Of a stretch of DNA of 50,163 nt, positions 17,306-23,778 are shown one piece after another. The stretch covers positions 4,316 through 54,478 of the forward strand of contig JBMORL010000118.1 in assembly GCA_049322335.1 (NCBI GenBank). Direction: 5' to 3'. The first letter of the stretch is position 1, and each line of letters starts with the position of its first letter. The translations under genes were made by a program, and so were the position numbers. The DNA comes from Bacteroidota bacterium (GTDB lineage: Bacteria; Bacteroidota; Bacteroidia; Flavobacteriales_D; UBA2798). The notes under the pieces are model-generated. The model did no database searches. It was not told the origin of the DNA and saw nothing but the letters and a program-made list of their open reading frames with translations.

Positions 17306-17608
17306 ATGAAGAAAATATTACAATTACTTGTTATAGCTTCTATATTTCTTTTTACAGCCTGCGAAAAAGCGGAACGGCCGGAAGAGAAAACGGAATTTGG
17401 CGAATGTGGAACGATGACTCATTCTACAAATGTGGGTATGGGATTAAAATCGGATGCGGAAATCCACCAAATGGTAGATGAACGGATCAGTTATTTTGTT
17501 TCACAGTTGGGAAGTGAAGATGCGTTCGAACAATTCTATGGGAAAACCATCCATGAGATCAGGCAGGAATTTATACAGGTATTTACAGATTCGCTGGGGA
17601 GAAAGTAA
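17306..17608 (+). CDS. Hypothetical small lipoprotein.
   Basis: Signal plus lipobox (IFLFTACEK). No recognisable domain. Confidence 0.45.
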   Translation: MKKILQLLVIASIFLFTACEKAERPEEKTEFGECGTMTHSTNVGMGLKSDAEIHQMVDERISYFVSQLGSEDAFEQFYGKTIHEIRQEFIQVFTDSLGRK

Positions 17609-17632
17609 AAAAACACCGGATATTGTTCTGAA

Positions 17633-18166
17633 ATGAAAAAAGTTCTCTTTTATGCTTTAATACTACTCTCTATAGAAGCATTACTGATTTGGCTTTGGAT
17701 ACACACCAATCAACCCGATCCAAGTTCTTCCATTGTTGGCATGTATCTGATTCCGGTAATATTCATTTTACATCTTTTTGCAGGAATATTCCTGTTTTTT
17801 TATACCAAGCCCTGGGGAAAATCATTTATAATTAACGCCTTCCTCTCCCCGGTTGTTTTTTGGATATTTTGGGATTTTTATTTGAATGATCTTTTTGTCG
17901 GGAATTACGAGCATTATATTTTTTCGTACAAGAATAAATCATACACCCTGATTGTTCCGCTAGATACATCATACGACAACATGTTTTATCTTGATGAGTC
18001 AACTGGTGAAAATTCCTTTACAAGCATTGATGCGGGAAGATGTTTCATAAAAAACGATACTATTTTTCTTCAGGGTGATTCCATCAGTATGAAAATTTTC
18101 AATAGCATTCTGATAGGGTTTCCTGAAAAGGACACAAAAATTGAAATGGGGGTGGTTTGTTATTAA
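17633..18166 (+). CDS. Hypothetical membrane protein with three N-terminal TM helices.
   Basis: Hydrophobic helices LFYALILLSIEALLIWLWI, YLIPVIFILHLFAGIFLFFY, INAFLSPVVFWIFW. No recognisable domain. Confidence 0.45.
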   Translation: MKKVLFYALILLSIEALLIWLWIHTNQPDPSSSIVGMYLIPVIFILHLFAGIFLFFYTKPWGKSFIINAFLSPVVFWIFWDFYLNDLFVGNYEHYIFSYKNKSYTLIVPLDTSYDNMFYLDESTGENSFTSIDAGRCFIKNDTIFLQGDSISMKIFNSILIGFPEKDTKIEMGVVCY

Positions 18167-18272
18167 ATCCCTATTAATGAATGAAAAATCATTCTATTAT
18201 ACAATCCCTTTCATCATCTTATATTTCCTTTTCAGGTGTATTCCAAACATGGGTTGGTGTAAATAAAATGAT

Positions 18273-18647
18273 ATGGTAAAAGGATCATTCATATTAAAAG
18301 GAAACCATCTCGTAAGCGGAATCAATAACGTTTTAACCAACCTTCTTACAGAAGGAAAATCATCTTCTTATCCATTTGAAAACGGAACCGTGTATTTTTT
18401 TGATGAACACGATTGGTTTACCACTACCAATTATTGTATTGTAGCCGTAATTGACAACCGGTTATTTGATGCAAAAACAAATTCCCTGGAAATCCATTGC
18501 TACACCCTGGGTGGAAAAACCGGAATTTTTGAATGGGATCTCTGGAAAAGGGAAAAAAAATGTCTTTCCGGTTTTCACAAACTGATATCGGGTTATTGCA
18601 AAGGTTATGAATGGCAAATAGAGCCACTGGAGATAAAAAAATCGTGA
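18273..18647 (+). CDS. Hypothetical small protein.
   Basis: A 124-aa ORF with a start 4 bp before the next gene. No recognisable domain. Confidence 0.35.
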   Translation: MVKGSFILKGNHLVSGINNVLTNLLTEGKSSSYPFENGTVYFFDEHDWFTTTNYCIVAVIDNRLFDAKTNSLEIHCYTLGGKTGIFEWDLWKREKKCLSGFHKLISGYCKGYEWQIEPLEIKKS

Positions 18648-18650
18648 ACA

Positions 18651-19100
18651 ATGGAAATCCGAATTCTTTATTCCGCTGTTGCATTTTTTATGATTATTGT
18701 TTCACTACAACGTACAGGGTTTTTTCAAAAGATTATTACCTGCGGTTTATGTTTGGCAATATTTTTATCCTGGATCGAAAACGAAAATATCAGGTTTTCC
18801 GCATTTATACTTTTTAATTTATCTGTATTGTTATCCGTTTATTACGGAGCCACCCAAAAACACCTGTTACTTACTGAAAAAGTTATCATCCTTACTACAG
18901 GAATTATAATTTTTTTGAGAAGTTTTTTCGGAATGATGCACTGGCCGGGAGCTGTCCCGGTTGGCTTATTCATGATTTTACCTGTATTAGGTTATATCTA
19001 TTTATTGATAAATAAAAATATCTTAAAAAGTAAAGAAGCTGGTTTTTTAACCCTGTTAATTTTCCACTGCATGGTTGTTTTCATTCAAATGATGACCTGA
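18651..19100 (+). CDS. Hypothetical integral membrane protein with 4-5 TM helices.
   Basis: Highly hydrophobic 149-aa ORF. It converges on the end of the SMC-like operon. Confidence 0.45.
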   Translation: MEIRILYSAVAFFMIIVSLQRTGFFQKIITCGLCLAIFLSWIENENIRFSAFILFNLSVLLSVYYGATQKHLLLTEKVIILTTGIIIFLRSFFGMMHWPGAVPVGLFMILPVLGYIYLLINKNILKSKEAGFLTLLIFHCMVVFIQMMT

Positions 19101-19123: not shown

Positions 19124-19651
19124 TCAATTCACCCCTTCTTTAATCTTATTTCTTGCCAGTTCGCTGGCGAAGTCGATAAATACTTTGTAAGCCAGTGTAA
19201 AGGTAAATTTATCTTCCGCGTGTTTATCTATAATATTTCTGCGGCCCAGTGAATTGACAAAAGTTTTCCGGGAATCCTTGTCACGCAACTGTTTGTTGGA
19301 ATTGATCAGGTCGGTATAGTTGGAATTCTCAAAATATTTATCCACGCGCTCCTGGTCCCACTCCGAATACTGGATCTCTTCAATAAAGTTTCTTCCATCG
19401 CGGTCGAGTTCGTAGCTGAGAATAGCAAAGAAAATACAAATGTCGCGCGACAGTGTTTCGTTACTTTCACCCGAAAGCAAAAAACAAAAATCATTGGTCA
19501 TCCGCAATTCATAGTCGAATGACATTTTAAAGAATTCGGTGTAAAATTCACCGTTTTCCCTTATAACCTGGTAAAGCGGTTCGGAAGGAAGGATGAATTT
19601 TCCATCCAGCAATTCCTTTACTACCTGTTTATGCGATTTCGGGTAATCCAT
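19124..19651 (-). CDS. Third gene of the SMC-like ATPase operon: a 175-aa acidic helical protein, size-compatible with a kite-type (MukE/MksE/JetB-like) subunit or an ABC-3C C-terminal component.
   Basis: It overlaps the upstream gene by 23 nt (19629-19651), so it is translationally coupled. No enzymatic motif. The assignment rests on operon context and size alone. Confidence 0.6.
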   Translation of the reverse strand: MDYPKSHKQVVKELLDGKFILPSEPLYQVIRENGEFYTEFFKMSFDYELRMTNDFCFLLSGESNETLSRDICIFFAILSYELDRDGRNFIEEIQYSEWDQERVDKYFENSNYTDLINSNKQLRDKDSRKTFVNSLGRRNIIDKHAEDKFTFTLAYKVFIDFASELARNKIKEGVN

Positions 19652-20837
19652 GTTTGCTTATTTTAACTTTGGGAACGCTTAAAATGGCGTCCTGCATTTT
19701 TATTTGGGTATGTTTCTTTTCGGGATCGGCTTCCAGTACCATGTCGTCTTCAAAAAGAAGAGAAACCATGGAGAAGAATTTTTCCTGGTCTACATCAGAA
19801 AAATCACGGTTGGCGGTATCGCTGCACCATCCGAAAAAGTCTTCAATAGGCAGCTTACTTTCCATTCTCGTTTTATACAATTCCCGGTTGAAAATCCACT
19901 TTTCCTGGAAAGTGATTTCTTCGCTGAGTAATACAGGTGTATCATCGAGGAATTGCTCCACATATTCTTTGGCGGTGAGATAAAAATTGCGTGAGTAAGC
20001 GCGTTCGAGTGTAGTTTTGAAAATGCGCGGCACCCTGGTTTGATACGGCTTGCGCAAAAATTCAATCCATCCCGAAAGAATAAGTGATTCAGTTTTGATA
20101 CGTTCAATAAGTGGCAATAATTCGTTGGTGAGAATTTTAGATTGTTTCAGTAAATCATCATTCGACTGTACCAAAAACCCATACAGTTTTTCAAATTGCT
20201 GGCGTGCAATTTCATCGGGAAAATCAAGGCGTTTGATATTTACATAATACGCCACCTCGTGTAATTGATTGGTAATGGAAGCCTGCTGGTTCACATCCAG
20301 GATTTCATTCAGCGGAATAATGTAATGTTCAATCCATCCCGAGGCACGGTGCACTTTTTCGCGGTAATCGATTTTTTCGATGTTGGCTTTCAGTGCGCGG
20401 GTTTCGGAAAGAAGTTTTGCCGTATTTTTCTCAATAGAGTCCACAAAATTTCGCACTTCCGAAAGAATATCTTCAATACGTTTAATGAGAATTTCCCTGT
20501 CGCCATTGATCCCTTCCTTAATTTTTCTAAAAAGAGCAAGAATAGAAAATCCGTATTTTTCGATTGTTTCGGGAAGTACGGGTTTAAATTCGTTGGAGAT
20601 AAACTCGATCAGCTGGAAAAAAACGGGACGAATTTCAAAATCGTCATTTACGTTTCTCACGATTTTAAACTCCAGCAGTTTGTCTTCCATATCGTGGCCG
20701 TATTTTTTTACAATGGCACGAAATTGCTGGTTGCGTAAAAATCCTTTCTCCATCTGCTCGCTAAAAAGCTCCTGCAGCATGTCGAAGTGATTCCACACGA
20801 AGTATAAAATAGTACGGGGTTCTGCTTTTACTAACAT
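19629..20837 (-). CDS. Second gene of the SMC-like ATPase operon: a 402-aa helical protein, size-compatible with a kleisin-like (MukF/MksF/JetA-like) subunit or an ABC-3C middle component.
   Basis: Its start codon at 20835-20837 directly abuts the ATPase stop at 20839-20841. No catalytic motif. The assignment rests on context. Confidence 0.6.
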   Translation of the reverse strand: MLVKAEPRTILYFVWNHFDMLQELFSEQMEKGFLRNQQFRAIVKKYGHDMEDKLLEFKIVRNVNDDFEIRPVFFQLIEFISNEFKPVLPETIEKYGFSILALFRKIKEGINGDREILIKRIEDILSEVRNFVDSIEKNTAKLLSETRALKANIEKIDYREKVHRASGWIEHYIIPLNEILDVNQQASITNQLHEVAYYVNIKRLDFPDEIARQQFEKLYGFLVQSNDDLLKQSKILTNELLPLIERIKTESLILSGWIEFLRKPYQTRVPRIFKTTLERAYSRNFYLTAKEYVEQFLDDTPVLLSEEITFQEKWIFNRELYKTRMESKLPIEDFFGWCSDTANRDFSDVDQEKFFSMVSLLFEDDMVLEADPEKKHTQIKMQDAILSVPKVKISKHGLPEIA

Positions 20838-20838
20838 A

Positions 20839-23490
20839 TTATGCTTCGGCTATGGGTTCGCTGTAAATGGCATTTAATCTTTCGTTGATATTGATCTTTC
20901 CTTTGCTTGGATAGATGAAGTAGTATTTGCTGAATCCCGGAACAGGATCGGGCGCAGCAAAAATGGGAATGAAATTATGCTCGCGGCAGAATTTCACCAG
21001 CTCGGGGCGATTGTGTTTGTCGATAGTAGCTACCTCGTCAATGAACAAAGTAATCCTGTTGTCTACATCAGTAACCGCCAACCGGTTGATGATTGACATG
21101 ATAATTACTAAACGGATCATTCTGTCAGTTCCATCCGATTCTACCTGGTTCGCAAGATCCACTTTCTTTAACATTCCTTTCAGCATCAGGTGAAGTTCGA
21201 TATCAAACAATTCATCGAAATAAACTTTTTTGGAATTGTCGAGGTATTGGTTGAGAATTTTAAGATTCTCCGTCTGATCGAATTCCAGCATCAGCTGTCC
21301 GTTGATTTCCTGGATTTCTGAAATGGCTTTAATTTCTCCGAGTACGCGTTTGTTATCCAGCAATTCAATCTGCAGTGATTCGATATCCGAAATCCGTGTT
21401 CCCGCGAGTTTCGAGTTGAATTTGGTATAAATAAATTGTTTGAATTCTTCGTAACGTTTCAGCAAATTGAAAGCCGGGTTAGCAAACTGTGTGGAAATAC
21501 TTGCCAAAAGCCCATCGATACTTTTTTCCTTGTCATTCAAACAGGCAATTTCTTCTTCGAAATAGCGAATGAATTCTTCTTCATCGGCAATAGTGCTTTT
21601 TAAAATGTGGCGCAGGTTGTCGAATGCTTTGTCTTTTTGTGATTTCAGGTCGGCCCGGTCGGCATAATGCGCTTTCATTTTGTTGTAAATAAGATCAAGG
21701 TTCTCATTATTTTCACAGGGAATGGGCGGCAATCCGAGGAAATCAACTTCCTGTTTTCTTTCACGGAGAAGTGTTATGCGTTCTTCTGTTTTTTTACGGT
21801 CATCACGGATAGCAGCGAGCATGTGTTCCTTGGTCATGATCTCCTGCATGGTGGATTTTAATTCGCGCTCCAGCTCGTCTTTTTCTTCACGCAGCTTCTC
21901 TACTTCGAGGCGGAAAGAGCTGAGTTCTTTTTCTACCTGGGGTTTTGTTTTTAATTTTTTGATTTTTTCTTTTATCTCATCAATGTTTTCACGGATCTGC
22001 GAAAGCTGAAGGTGAACATTTTCAGAATCTTTAACTGTATTCAGCAGTTTTTCGAATTGATCGCGCTCGCGTTTCAGCTCAGTCAGTTCTTCATTGATTT
22101 CATCTACTGATTTAAACTCTTTCAGAGAAATACCTTCCACGTCAATTTCACCGTCAAAAATTTTCAGTTTACGGGTGGCGCGTTTTACTTTTTCAAGCAC
22201 TTTTCCCGAGGGAAGAGATGTTACTCTTTCAGAAAGTACCGTGTTGAGTAATTTTCTTGTATCGGCATCATCCGAGATTTTATGAATGAGCAGGTCATTG
22301 TAGTTACGGGCCTGGTTTTCTTTTTCACTTATGGCTGCACTCAATACATCAATTCTTGCGCGGATATGGTTTCCGGTGTAGCGCTGGCTTTCTACCTGTG
22401 TAATCTGTGATTCGATCTCCTTACGGTTTTGTTCCAGGTTATCGAGCGATTCAGTGAGGAATTCCAGGTTTTCGTAGGAGTTGATTTCATCCAGTTCCAG
22501 TCGCTTGTCGTCAACATAACGTGTGCGATTGATAATATCCGATTCCTTTTGTCCGATTCTGCGGTTCAGATCCTGCTCTTTGGGACGAAGGAATTCTCCG
22601 ATCTCATTTACCAGTTCAGAAATTTCTTTTGCTTTGGTATGAACTTTTTCTTCCAGTTCGGGGAGAGTGGTTTTGTATGATTCTTCAAATGCAAAAACCA
22701 GCTCACTGAGAATTCTTGATTTGGATTCGTATTTGTTTACGATTTCGCGGAAATCGAGGAAATCATCTTTTACCGAACGAATATTTTTTATTTCGTCATT
22801 GAGGCGCAGAAGGTCGATGATGTCTTTTTTGTTTTTCTGGGAGAAATTAAGCACTTCATTTTCGCGGTTATCAGCAATGATGAGTGCATCTTTAAGTGTT
22901 TTGTTGGTGATGAGTTTGGAATTGATCAGGTAGCGGTACACTTTCGAAAAGTTATTGCTTAATCCGTCAGATTTCACGTTTTCCTCCAGCCAAACGGCAG
23001 CATTGTTGTCGCGGCCACGCTGGTAAACAAAACTAAACACTTCCGATTTGCTGTTGAATTTATCCAGCGGCAATCCTTCCTGTTCGAGGCGCTCCTGCAC
23101 TTCTTCAAATTTCAGCAACCGTTGCTGGGAACCATCTTCGCGGAAGAAAAAATCTTCGCGGAATTCACTGGGAAAAGTATAATATTCGAGTTCGCCTTCA
23201 GTATCACGTTTGATAAGCACGCAATAACTGGAGCTTTTAAAAATTTCGAAAACGATATAACTCTGGTTGGGTGTCGGGAAATAGTGGTGAACCGTTTCCT
23301 TGTCGCCTTTTCTTTGTCCGGAGAACGACATTTTGTTTCCATCGATGATGAACAAAAAGTTGAGCGCATAGATGAGCGTACTTTTTCCGATGTTGTTGGG
23401 TCCTACGAGCTGAAGCGAGTCGCAGTCATCCACGCGAACGATGGCTTTTCCGTATACACGCGAGTTGAGAACAGCAATTTTTCTAAGCAT
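20839..23490 (-). CDS. SMC-like ABC-type ATPase with a split head and a long central coiled coil (883 aa). This is the lead gene of the three-gene operon.
   Basis: N-terminal Walker A LVGPNNIGKST. About 550 aa of E/K/L-rich heptad sequence in the middle. At the C-terminus, signature-like ESDGTDRM, Walker B plus D-loop ITLFIDEVATID, and an H-loop region REHNF. Confidence 0.8.
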   Translation of the reverse strand: MLRKIAVLNSRVYGKAIVRVDDCDSLQLVGPNNIGKSTLIYALNFLFIIDGNKMSFSGQRKGDKETVHHYFPTPNQSYIVFEIFKSSSYCVLIKRDTEGELEYYTFPSEFREDFFFREDGSQQRLLKFEEVQERLEQEGLPLDKFNSKSEVFSFVYQRGRDNNAAVWLEENVKSDGLSNNFSKVYRYLINSKLITNKTLKDALIIADNRENEVLNFSQKNKKDIIDLLRLNDEIKNIRSVKDDFLDFREIVNKYESKSRILSELVFAFEESYKTTLPELEEKVHTKAKEISELVNEIGEFLRPKEQDLNRRIGQKESDIINRTRYVDDKRLELDEINSYENLEFLTESLDNLEQNRKEIESQITQVESQRYTGNHIRARIDVLSAAISEKENQARNYNDLLIHKISDDADTRKLLNTVLSERVTSLPSGKVLEKVKRATRKLKIFDGEIDVEGISLKEFKSVDEINEELTELKRERDQFEKLLNTVKDSENVHLQLSQIRENIDEIKEKIKKLKTKPQVEKELSSFRLEVEKLREEKDELERELKSTMQEIMTKEHMLAAIRDDRKKTEERITLLRERKQEVDFLGLPPIPCENNENLDLIYNKMKAHYADRADLKSQKDKAFDNLRHILKSTIADEEEFIRYFEEEIACLNDKEKSIDGLLASISTQFANPAFNLLKRYEEFKQFIYTKFNSKLAGTRISDIESLQIELLDNKRVLGEIKAISEIQEINGQLMLEFDQTENLKILNQYLDNSKKVYFDELFDIELHLMLKGMLKKVDLANQVESDGTDRMIRLVIIMSIINRLAVTDVDNRITLFIDEVATIDKHNRPELVKFCREHNFIPIFAAPDPVPGFSKYYFIYPSKGKININERLNAIYSEPIAEA

Positions 23491-23560
23491 TTTCCTTGTA
23501 TTATTAAAGTATCAAAGATAGCGATTGACCCCTCGTGAAAAGGGCGGGCTTTTTGTGATT

Positions 23561-23575
23561 TGTCAACATTTGACA
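23561..23575. promoter_or_regulatory. Perfect inverted repeat TGTCAA-CAT-TTGACA, ~70-85 bp upstream of the SMC-like ATPase operon start. Candidate operator.
   Basis: 6-bp arms with a 3-bp spacer, read directly from the 23491-23778 intergenic region that precedes the minus-strand operon. Confidence 0.3.
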
Positions 23576-23778
23576 CCAACTGTTGATAAGTTGTAATTGG
23601 CTGATCAATCAGGCAAAAAGCCTGTGAATATCTTTTTCCGGCACCTGAAAAACAGGCGGAAAATGTTAATTACTGCGCCTGAAAGGGCGAGAGCAGGTAT
23701 AAATTAATTAACTGAAAATGAAATGGTTTTTGAGGAAGAAAACAAAAGTTTTTCCTCTTGCATGACTCCTTAAAACCA

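Follow-up and report, generated by a model that had tools for sequence, protein, structure and literature searches.

The Mks/Wadjet group of SMC-like complexes includes both plasmid-cutting defence systems and chromosome organisers such as MukBEF. A three-gene operon was found in a stretch of 50,163 nucleotides (nt) from an uncultured Bacteroidota bacterium (contig JBMORL010000118.1, positions 4,316 to 54,478; hereafter the window). The genes, here called B, F and E, lie consecutively on the minus strand and encode proteins of 883, 402 and 175 amino acids (aa), exactly as stated in a preliminary description made from the sequence alone. That description had considered two readings: a reordered, nuclease-less variant of Wadjet or Mks, and a conflict system of the ABC-3C type. 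Our analysis bore out the former. We consider it probable, at about 0.8, that B-F-E encodes a compact Mks/Wadjet-type SMC complex, a nuclease-less derivative of a four-gene operon, B-G-F-E, from which the nuclease gene G was deleted in place repeatedly.

Identity of the three subunits

B (20839..23490, minus strand) is a compact SMC-like ABC ATPase resembling MksB, MukB and JetC, as judged from its open reading frame, its motifs and an AlphaFold2 model with a predicted local distance difference test score (pLDDT) of 73. The split ABC head around a coiled coil, which had been read from the sequence, was recovered in the model: residues 1-215 and 700-883 form the head, residues 218-395 and 462-695 form two long antiparallel helices (the arms), and residues 396-461 form a small apical hinge-like module with a conserved FDGEID motif at 445-450. 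The ATPase motifs, namely Walker A (GPNNIGKS, residues 30-37), SDGT (785-788), the Walker B/D-loop (LFIDEVATID, 815-824) and REH (836-838), were all invariant across the 24 aligned homologues. When the model was compared with the PDB by Foldseek, the first four matches were all MukB (E 1.1e-19 to 3.4e-18) and the fifth was Rad50 (E 2.6e-14), followed by JetC (about 1e-12), Smc5/6 (about 1e-9) and Lamassu LmuB (6e-4). The model and these matches together give B a split ABC head, a long antiparallel coiled coil and an apical hinge, at which it presumably dimerises.

The sequence of B carried less of this signal. A profile of the B family aligned with the N-terminal head of Escherichia coli MukB (residues 7-183) at E 8e-4 in hhalign, and the Pfam matches (AAA_21, AAA_29, MukB N-terminal and SMC_N, the last at E 0.33) were all below threshold. 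Searches of the PDB with the protein and with the family profile returned coiled-coil noise only and no informative match. B is currently "hypothetical" in public records, and some of its homologues are called "SbcCD ATPase subunit" by JGI.

E (19124..19651, minus strand) had been described as a protein without enzymatic motifs or a family. This did not hold, as E clearly matched the Pfam family PF21980, "Condensin complex protein MksE", with an E-value of 3.9e-21 and 76.5 bits (cut-off, 27 bits) over profile positions 2-161 of 163. It is therefore a full-length KITE subunit of the MukE/MksE/JetB family, and NCBI lists an identical protein as "condensin complex protein MksE". Sequence searches of the PDB with E yielded coiled-coil noise only. 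The same family was matched by E. coli MukE at 173 bits, and the E subunits of one type-II and one type-III Wadjet operon gave no match to it.

F (19629..20837, minus strand) is composed of an N-terminal winged helix (residues 7-69), a helical bundle (88-262), a disordered linker (271-313) and a C-terminal winged helix (318-394), the architecture of a MukF/JetA-type kleisin, and MukF and JetA were structurally nearest to its AlphaFold model. F had no Pfam family, and neither did any of 55 relatives down to 14% identity (E up to 0.01). Searches of the PDB by sequence, with the single protein and with family profiles, gave no match. Profiles of the F and E families did not align significantly with single E. 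coli MukF and MukE sequences in hhalign; such single-sequence templates were too weak. Both F and E went undetected by the PADLOC models of JetA and JetB and by Pfam DUF3375, DUF4194, DUF2397 and DUF2398. The F family is compact: clustering at 50% identity gave only 131 clusters from 1.84 billion proteins. F, too, is "hypothetical" in public records.

E is MksE, the model of B resembles MukB and JetC, and the model of F resembles MukF and JetA; therefore, the three proteins would make up a complex of an SMC-like ATPase, a kleisin and a KITE protein. The argument from protein sizes, which had suggested the same composition, was right.

Relatives with a nuclease gene between B and F

The F family was found in at least 271 species-level genomes, and the best 80 of these were all Bacteroidota metagenome-assembled genomes (MAGs), some of them with odd taxon labels. 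B, F and E kept this order on one strand in every complete locus, and F and E overlapped by 14 nt in 68 loci. In four loci (L095, L093, L096 and L098; L numbers denote the loci compared), a gene of 267-276 aa, G, sits between B and F.

Judged by its sequence, G is a short JetD-like Toprim nuclease of 260-290 aa, which corresponds to no more than the Toprim half of the usual JetD. G of L095 exceeded the cut-off of Pfam JetD_C with 41 bits, and the PADLOC model JetD1 matched G of L095 (E 2.0e-7), of L096 (E 2.5e-7) and of L097, a locus with the order F-E-B-G (E 1.4e-8). The G proteins were homologous to one another (E 1e-29 to 1e-57) and to the JetD_C protein of L097, and the Toprim signatures [VI]EN, DxD and LEQ[EQ] were kept in all of them. 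B, F and E of the window matched the subunits of G-bearing operons over their full length, with best E-values of 1e-62 (by BLASTP), 3e-49 and 4e-38.

A metagenome scan anchored on G yielded 59 loci, 40 of which were complete B-G-F-E operons with uniform sizes; the others were mostly cut by contig ends, and two had the order F-E-B-G. Median lengths of B, G, F and E were 886, 266, 399 and 176 aa in B-G-F-E operons; those of B, F and E were 883, 398 and 179 aa in B-F-E operons. No relative of G was found in IMG/VR viral contigs or PLSDB plasmids. The preliminary description had noted the lack of a Toprim partner, which is true of the window but misleading for the family, where that partner lies between B and F.

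Distant copies of B-G-F-E adjoin genes for Cas9-Cas1-Cas2, HigB, WYL, a methylase, a primase and transposases. In L096 (10853-19171), the operon stands directly upstream of a gene for a 1,111-aa AAA_11/AAA_12 helicase and of a type II CRISPR-Cas system (Cas9 of 1,185 aa, Cas1 and Cas2), forming a compact defence island. L094 (6495-10731) holds a very divergent B-F-E operon with B of 844 aa, F of 392 aa and E of 178 aa with the MksE family. Its host is probably not a member of Bacteroidota, because the operon adjoins the flagellar hook genes FlgD and Flg_hook, and it may be an independent nuclease-less occurrence.

Some records of these relatives carry questionable labels. The Bacteroidota-type operon occurs in MAG records L017, L023, L034, L039, L041, L050, L072, L080 and L081, whose titles include Bifidobacterium, Bifidobacteriaceae, Vulcanococcus, Methylacidiphilales, Gemmatimonadaceae and Competibacteraceae; several "Chitinophaga pinensis" MAGs are also concerned. 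The titles probably reflect wrong taxon labelling or contamination of bins. The newer Pfam models PF28007 and PF28010 touch some relatives of B and F, though not the window proteins, and their labels look swapped: "PF28010:MksB" was placed on a 413-aa kleisin-like protein (among L097 1645-6167, L098 6556-8205 and P0205), and "PF28007:MksF" on SMC-like ATPases (905 aa in L097, a truncated copy of 549 aa in L098 and 884 aa in P0205).

Repeated loss of G in place

Loci from close Bacteroidota genomes were re-scored for operon class with hidden Markov models (HMMs). There were 70 B-F-E loci, three of them with a long spacer between B and F, nine B-G-F-E loci and two loci in which B is split into two open reading frames. 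The preliminary description had proposed a survey of whether a Toprim partner ever co-occurs; it does, as G stands between B and F in these nine loci and in the 40 metagenome loci above.

The slot occupied by G in relatives corresponds in the window to the B/F junction (20835..20841, minus strand), which reads TAA, one nucleotide, ATG and represents a clean deletion. Neither the operon nor the rest of the window has a G-like open reading frame, and none was found in 1.07 Mb flanking 73 B-F-E loci. In L049, the B-F spacer of 430 nt contains a fragment of the C-terminus of G (HMM positions 242-267, E 4.5e-5), which is probably a deletion scar. The long spacers of L035 (415 nt) and L031 (678 nt) contained no detectable remnant of G.

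Neighbour-joining trees were built from concatenated B, F and E with the compact F-E-B-G operons as the outgroup. The Bacteroidota clade nests inside B-G-F-E lineages, and G-bearing loci are scattered among G-less ones. Assuming that G was never regained, there are 12 maximal clades composed entirely of B-F-E loci, which suggests at least about 12 separate losses of G. Distances between G proteins track those of B, F and E with a Spearman coefficient of 0.75, as expected for co-inheritance.

Two sister pairs, L084 (B-G-F-E) with L069 (B-F-E) and L079 with L066, share the same five downstream genes at 62-93% identity, namely aroC, a protease gene, topA and two more. The flanks are shared within each pair; therefore, the locus was inherited vertically and G was removed from it in place. 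The operon context in the close Bacteroidota clade consists of housekeeping genes.

A subclade of 18 loci, including L066, L069, L079 and L084, carries aroC, a gene for a secreted zinc protease and topA at 0.1-7 kb downstream of E. The linkage of topA, coding for topoisomerase I, with an SMC-like operon recalls the interplay of MukB and topoisomerase IV, and it may be a coincidence.

Selection on the remaining genes

Nonsynonymous divergence (dN) between pairs of B-F-E operons was 0.05-0.2 and synonymous divergence (dS) was saturated; where dS was finite, dN/dS was 0.02-0.08. The ratio in G-bearing pairs was 0.016-0.195, and B-F-E pairs were equally low. By these codon comparisons, B, F and E are under strong purifying selection. 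G was deleted repeatedly while B, F and E stayed under purifying selection; therefore, the operon would have retained a function independent of DNA cleavage.

Comparison with known systems

The Wadjet systems of types I-III (MksBEFG, JetABCD) consist, like the operons studied here, of an SMC-like ATPase, a kleisin and a KITE protein, with a Toprim nuclease that is present in the relatives of the window operon. The likeness extends to single subunits: G of the relatives matches JetD_C and JetD1, and the models of B and F resemble JetC and JetA. However, the window operon has no JetD/MksG nuclease, the order B-(G)-F-E differs from F-E-B-G, B-E-F-G and G-F-E-B, and the subunits are smaller, with B of about 885 aa instead of about 1,100-1,400 aa, G of about 266 aa, F of about 400 aa and E of about 176 aa.

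The compact F-E-B-G operons L097, L153 and L157 also have small subunits. They encode F of 412-417 aa, E of 185-203 aa, B of 905-934 aa and G of up to 306 aa; their E is Pfam MksE (109 bits), their G is JetD_C, and their F and B are homologous to those of the window (E 5e-10 and 8e-14). They differ from the window operon in having the canonical Wadjet order and in lying in a defence island with SIR2, a DEAD helicase and an integrase.

MukBEF of E. coli and its relatives differs in several ways. MukB has 1,486 aa compared with 883 aa for B, the order is F-E-B, identity is about 11-15%, and the host belongs to another phylum. The families KicB, MukF_M, MukF_C and PF04288 (MukE), which the E. coli proteins match strongly, were not matched by the window proteins.

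MksBEF of Pseudomonas aeruginosa is thought to descend from a JetABCD-like ancestor that lost JetD, and it contributes to chromosome organisation (PMC10586767). Loss of the nuclease is also the scenario that we infer for the window operon. The two are nevertheless independent lineages with different gene orders and sizes, and in the clade of the window sister genomes are found both with and without G.

Smc-ScpAB was rejected, as SMC_N reached E 0.33 only and neither a hinge family nor ScpA or ScpB was matched. Matches to canonical SMC, RecN or SbcC and to ScpA/ScpB, which would have spoken against a new variant, were looked for in Pfam and NCBIfam and not found.

Earlier work had shown the Mks/Wadjet group to be diverse, with some members that lack a nuclease (PMC7617805), and because of this the window operon is not a new kind of system. 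A 2025 census lists only the orders FEB, FEBG, BEF, BEFG and GFEB, and retains only operons in which MksB exceeds 890 aa and MksF has 400 aa or more (PMC7617805). The window operon falls outside this delimitation with its order B-F-E and its B of 883 aa, also the family median, and the F family has a median of 398 aa. The strings "BFE", "BGFE" and related ones do not occur in Data S1 of the census (PMC7617805). The family may be absent because the size filters exclude most of its members. The preliminary view that the family had not been described is therefore half right: B-(G)-F-E is missing from the census and PADLOC is blind to F and E, but NCBI already names E as MksE and the newer Pfam models reach some relatives of B and F.

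Upstream control region and chromosomal setting

The upstream control region (23491..23600, minus strand) was analysed by its sequence and by alignment with relatives. In the 23515-23525 region of the window (minus strand), about 30 nt 5' of the start codon of B, a box TATCTTTG fits TAnnTTTG, the -7 promoter consensus of Bacteroidota. Equivalent boxes (TATCTTTG, TATATTTG, TATTTTTG) align in L011, L008, L010, L077 and L087.

A palindrome reported upstream of B does exist, at 23560-23589; it is imperfect, with 13-nt arms that are 85% complementary. It holds a dyad, TTATCAACA-N12-TGTTGACAA, whose position is about -99 from the start codon of B. The general form of the dyad is TTAxCA-N(11-13)-TGTTxA at -97 to -99, in which the arms are conserved and the spacer is variable. 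It was limited to the subclade of the window (the window, L008, L010 and L011), that is, four of 58 B-F-E loci and none of 35 B-G-F-E loci, with a looser version in L077 and L087, and it was present in 0.8% of shuffles. A family-wide operator was rejected, as the dyad is confined to this subclade, within which it is a candidate operator for a regulator.

B, F and E are tightly coupled, as had been noted: the stop codon TAA of B and the ATG of F are 1 nt apart, and the reading frames of F and E share 23 nt. The neighbouring genes were also as described. On one side are genes for an S8 peptidase with a Por_Secre_tail, typical of the type IX secretion system (T9SS), and for a WG-repeat protein. 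On the other side are four small open reading frames without any Pfam match (100, 177, 124 and 149 aa; 17306-19100, plus strand), which converge on the operon; two of them look membrane-embedded as judged by sequence, and among the loci compared, only the near-identical contigs L005-L007 shared them.

The context had been called accessory-looking, which the rest of the window does not support. Its gene content is that of an ordinary Bacteroidota chromosome (IspH, dihydroorotase, BatA, Lgt and aldehyde dehydrogenase, together with T9SS-tailed proteins and SpoIIE-type phosphatases), its base composition is unremarkable, and it is not an obvious island.

Proposed function and alternative explanations

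The identities of the subunits, their homology to nuclease-bearing operons, the recurrent loss of G in place and the selection on the remaining genes are directly supported. Assembly of the complex, loop extrusion and the cellular role we infer by analogy. As in MukBEF and JetABC, B would dimerise, presumably at the small apical module (PMC7617805, PMC10586767). F would use its helical middle region and its C-terminal winged helix to bridge the heads of B, and may pair two complexes by means of its other winged helix, the N-terminal one. Dimers of E would bind F. Binding and hydrolysis of ATP would then load or entrap DNA and extrude loops. By analogy with Wadjet, the four-gene form B-G-F-E would serve in defence and cleave circular plasmids. 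In the uncultured Bacteroidota clade, the operon is now a vertically inherited chromosomal locus, one from which G was deleted many times.

According to the literature, MukBEF and the MksBEF of P. aeruginosa, both members of the group that lack a nuclease, work on the chromosome (PMC7617805, PMC10586767). By this analogy the retained function would most plausibly be chromosome folding or segregation, a tentative assignment to which we give slightly less than an even chance. Still more tentatively, the clade as a whole could be a compact Wadjet turning into a nuclease-free, chromosome-organising condensin, with at least a dozen losses and the same locus in sister species.

Several points weigh against these conclusions. 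The number of losses is approximate because the neighbour-joining tree is without bootstrap support, dS was saturated in most pairs, and the search for G beyond the window covered 1.07 Mb around 73 loci. The confidence of the models is moderate (pLDDT 72-73; predicted template modelling score 0.38-0.45), F has no sequence-level link to MukF, JetA or ScpA, and hinge dimerisation and the contacts among B, F and E would follow from analogy. In addition, the dyad conserved in the subclade hints at regulation, which is atypical of a housekeeping condensin.

The strongest rival is that the operon still serves in defence: B-F-E would recognise and loop-extrude small circular DNA, and either silence or sequester it uncut or recruit a nuclease encoded elsewhere. 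The nearest G-bearing relatives are Wadjet-like, distant ones lie in defence or mobile islands (with the Cas9-Cas1-Cas2, HigB, WYL, methylase and transposase genes mentioned above, and SIR2), G-bearing and G-less operons differ by a single gene, and the conserved dyad suggests regulated expression. We regard this explanation as rather unlikely, since no G-like open reading frame was found in the window or in the flanks searched, purifying selection that persisted long after about 12 independent losses fits a role independent of cleavage better, and the locus is vertically inherited in a housekeeping context.

It is much less probable that the genes left behind after nuclease loss are non-functional and on their way out. 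Decay would agree with the repeated loss of G, the G fragment in one spacer and the two loci with a split B. However, about 70 species-level genomes carry all three genes intact, the ATPase motifs are invariant, dN/dS is as low as in G-bearing operons, translational coupling is kept, and whole G-less subclades retain 74-93% identity.

A conflict system of the ABC-3C or Lamassu type, in which an ABC/SMC-like ATPase works with two unrelated accessory proteins, is scarcely credible. Three genes with the ATPase first would fit it, and in PADLOC B weakly matched the models AriA, LmuB and AbiLi (E 4e-6 to 4e-3), in each case on the P-loop or coiled coil only. ABC-3C was rejected, since no such Pfam match was found in F or E (E up to 1) or in the 55 members of the F family. 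Lamassu was rejected as well: the PADLOC match to LmuB (about 2e-3) is at the level of coiled coils, Foldseek placed LmuB (6e-4) far behind MukB (1e-19), no Lmu family was found in F or E, and there is no effector gene. Moreover, E is MksE, and the relatives carry JetD and not the effectors of those systems. Equally implausible is a DNA-repair ATPase such as RecN, SbcC/Rad50 or RecF with two accessory proteins, which the JGI names and the fifth rank of Rad50 might suggest, since no Mre11/SbcD partner is present, MukB is a better structural match than Rad50, the partners resemble a kleisin and a KITE protein, and no NCBIfam model for SMC, RecN, RecF or SbcC matched B.

Significance

MukBEF and MksBEF have been proposed to descend from a defence system by loss of its nuclease (PMC10586767). 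If the Bacteroidota clade does show a compact Wadjet turning into a chromosome-organising condensin, it would be a living model for this proposed Wadjet origin, and its SMC-kleisin-KITE machine would be the smallest known. Many independent, recent losses of G, with both states at one locus, make the transition directly testable. The ATPase has about 883 aa, compared with about 1,100 to 1,486 aa in the MukB and JetC types considered here, a size attractive for structural and single-molecule work. The B-G-F-E/B-F-E architecture and its size class are missed by current censuses and defence-system classifiers, and the "hypothetical" proteins B and F can now be named.

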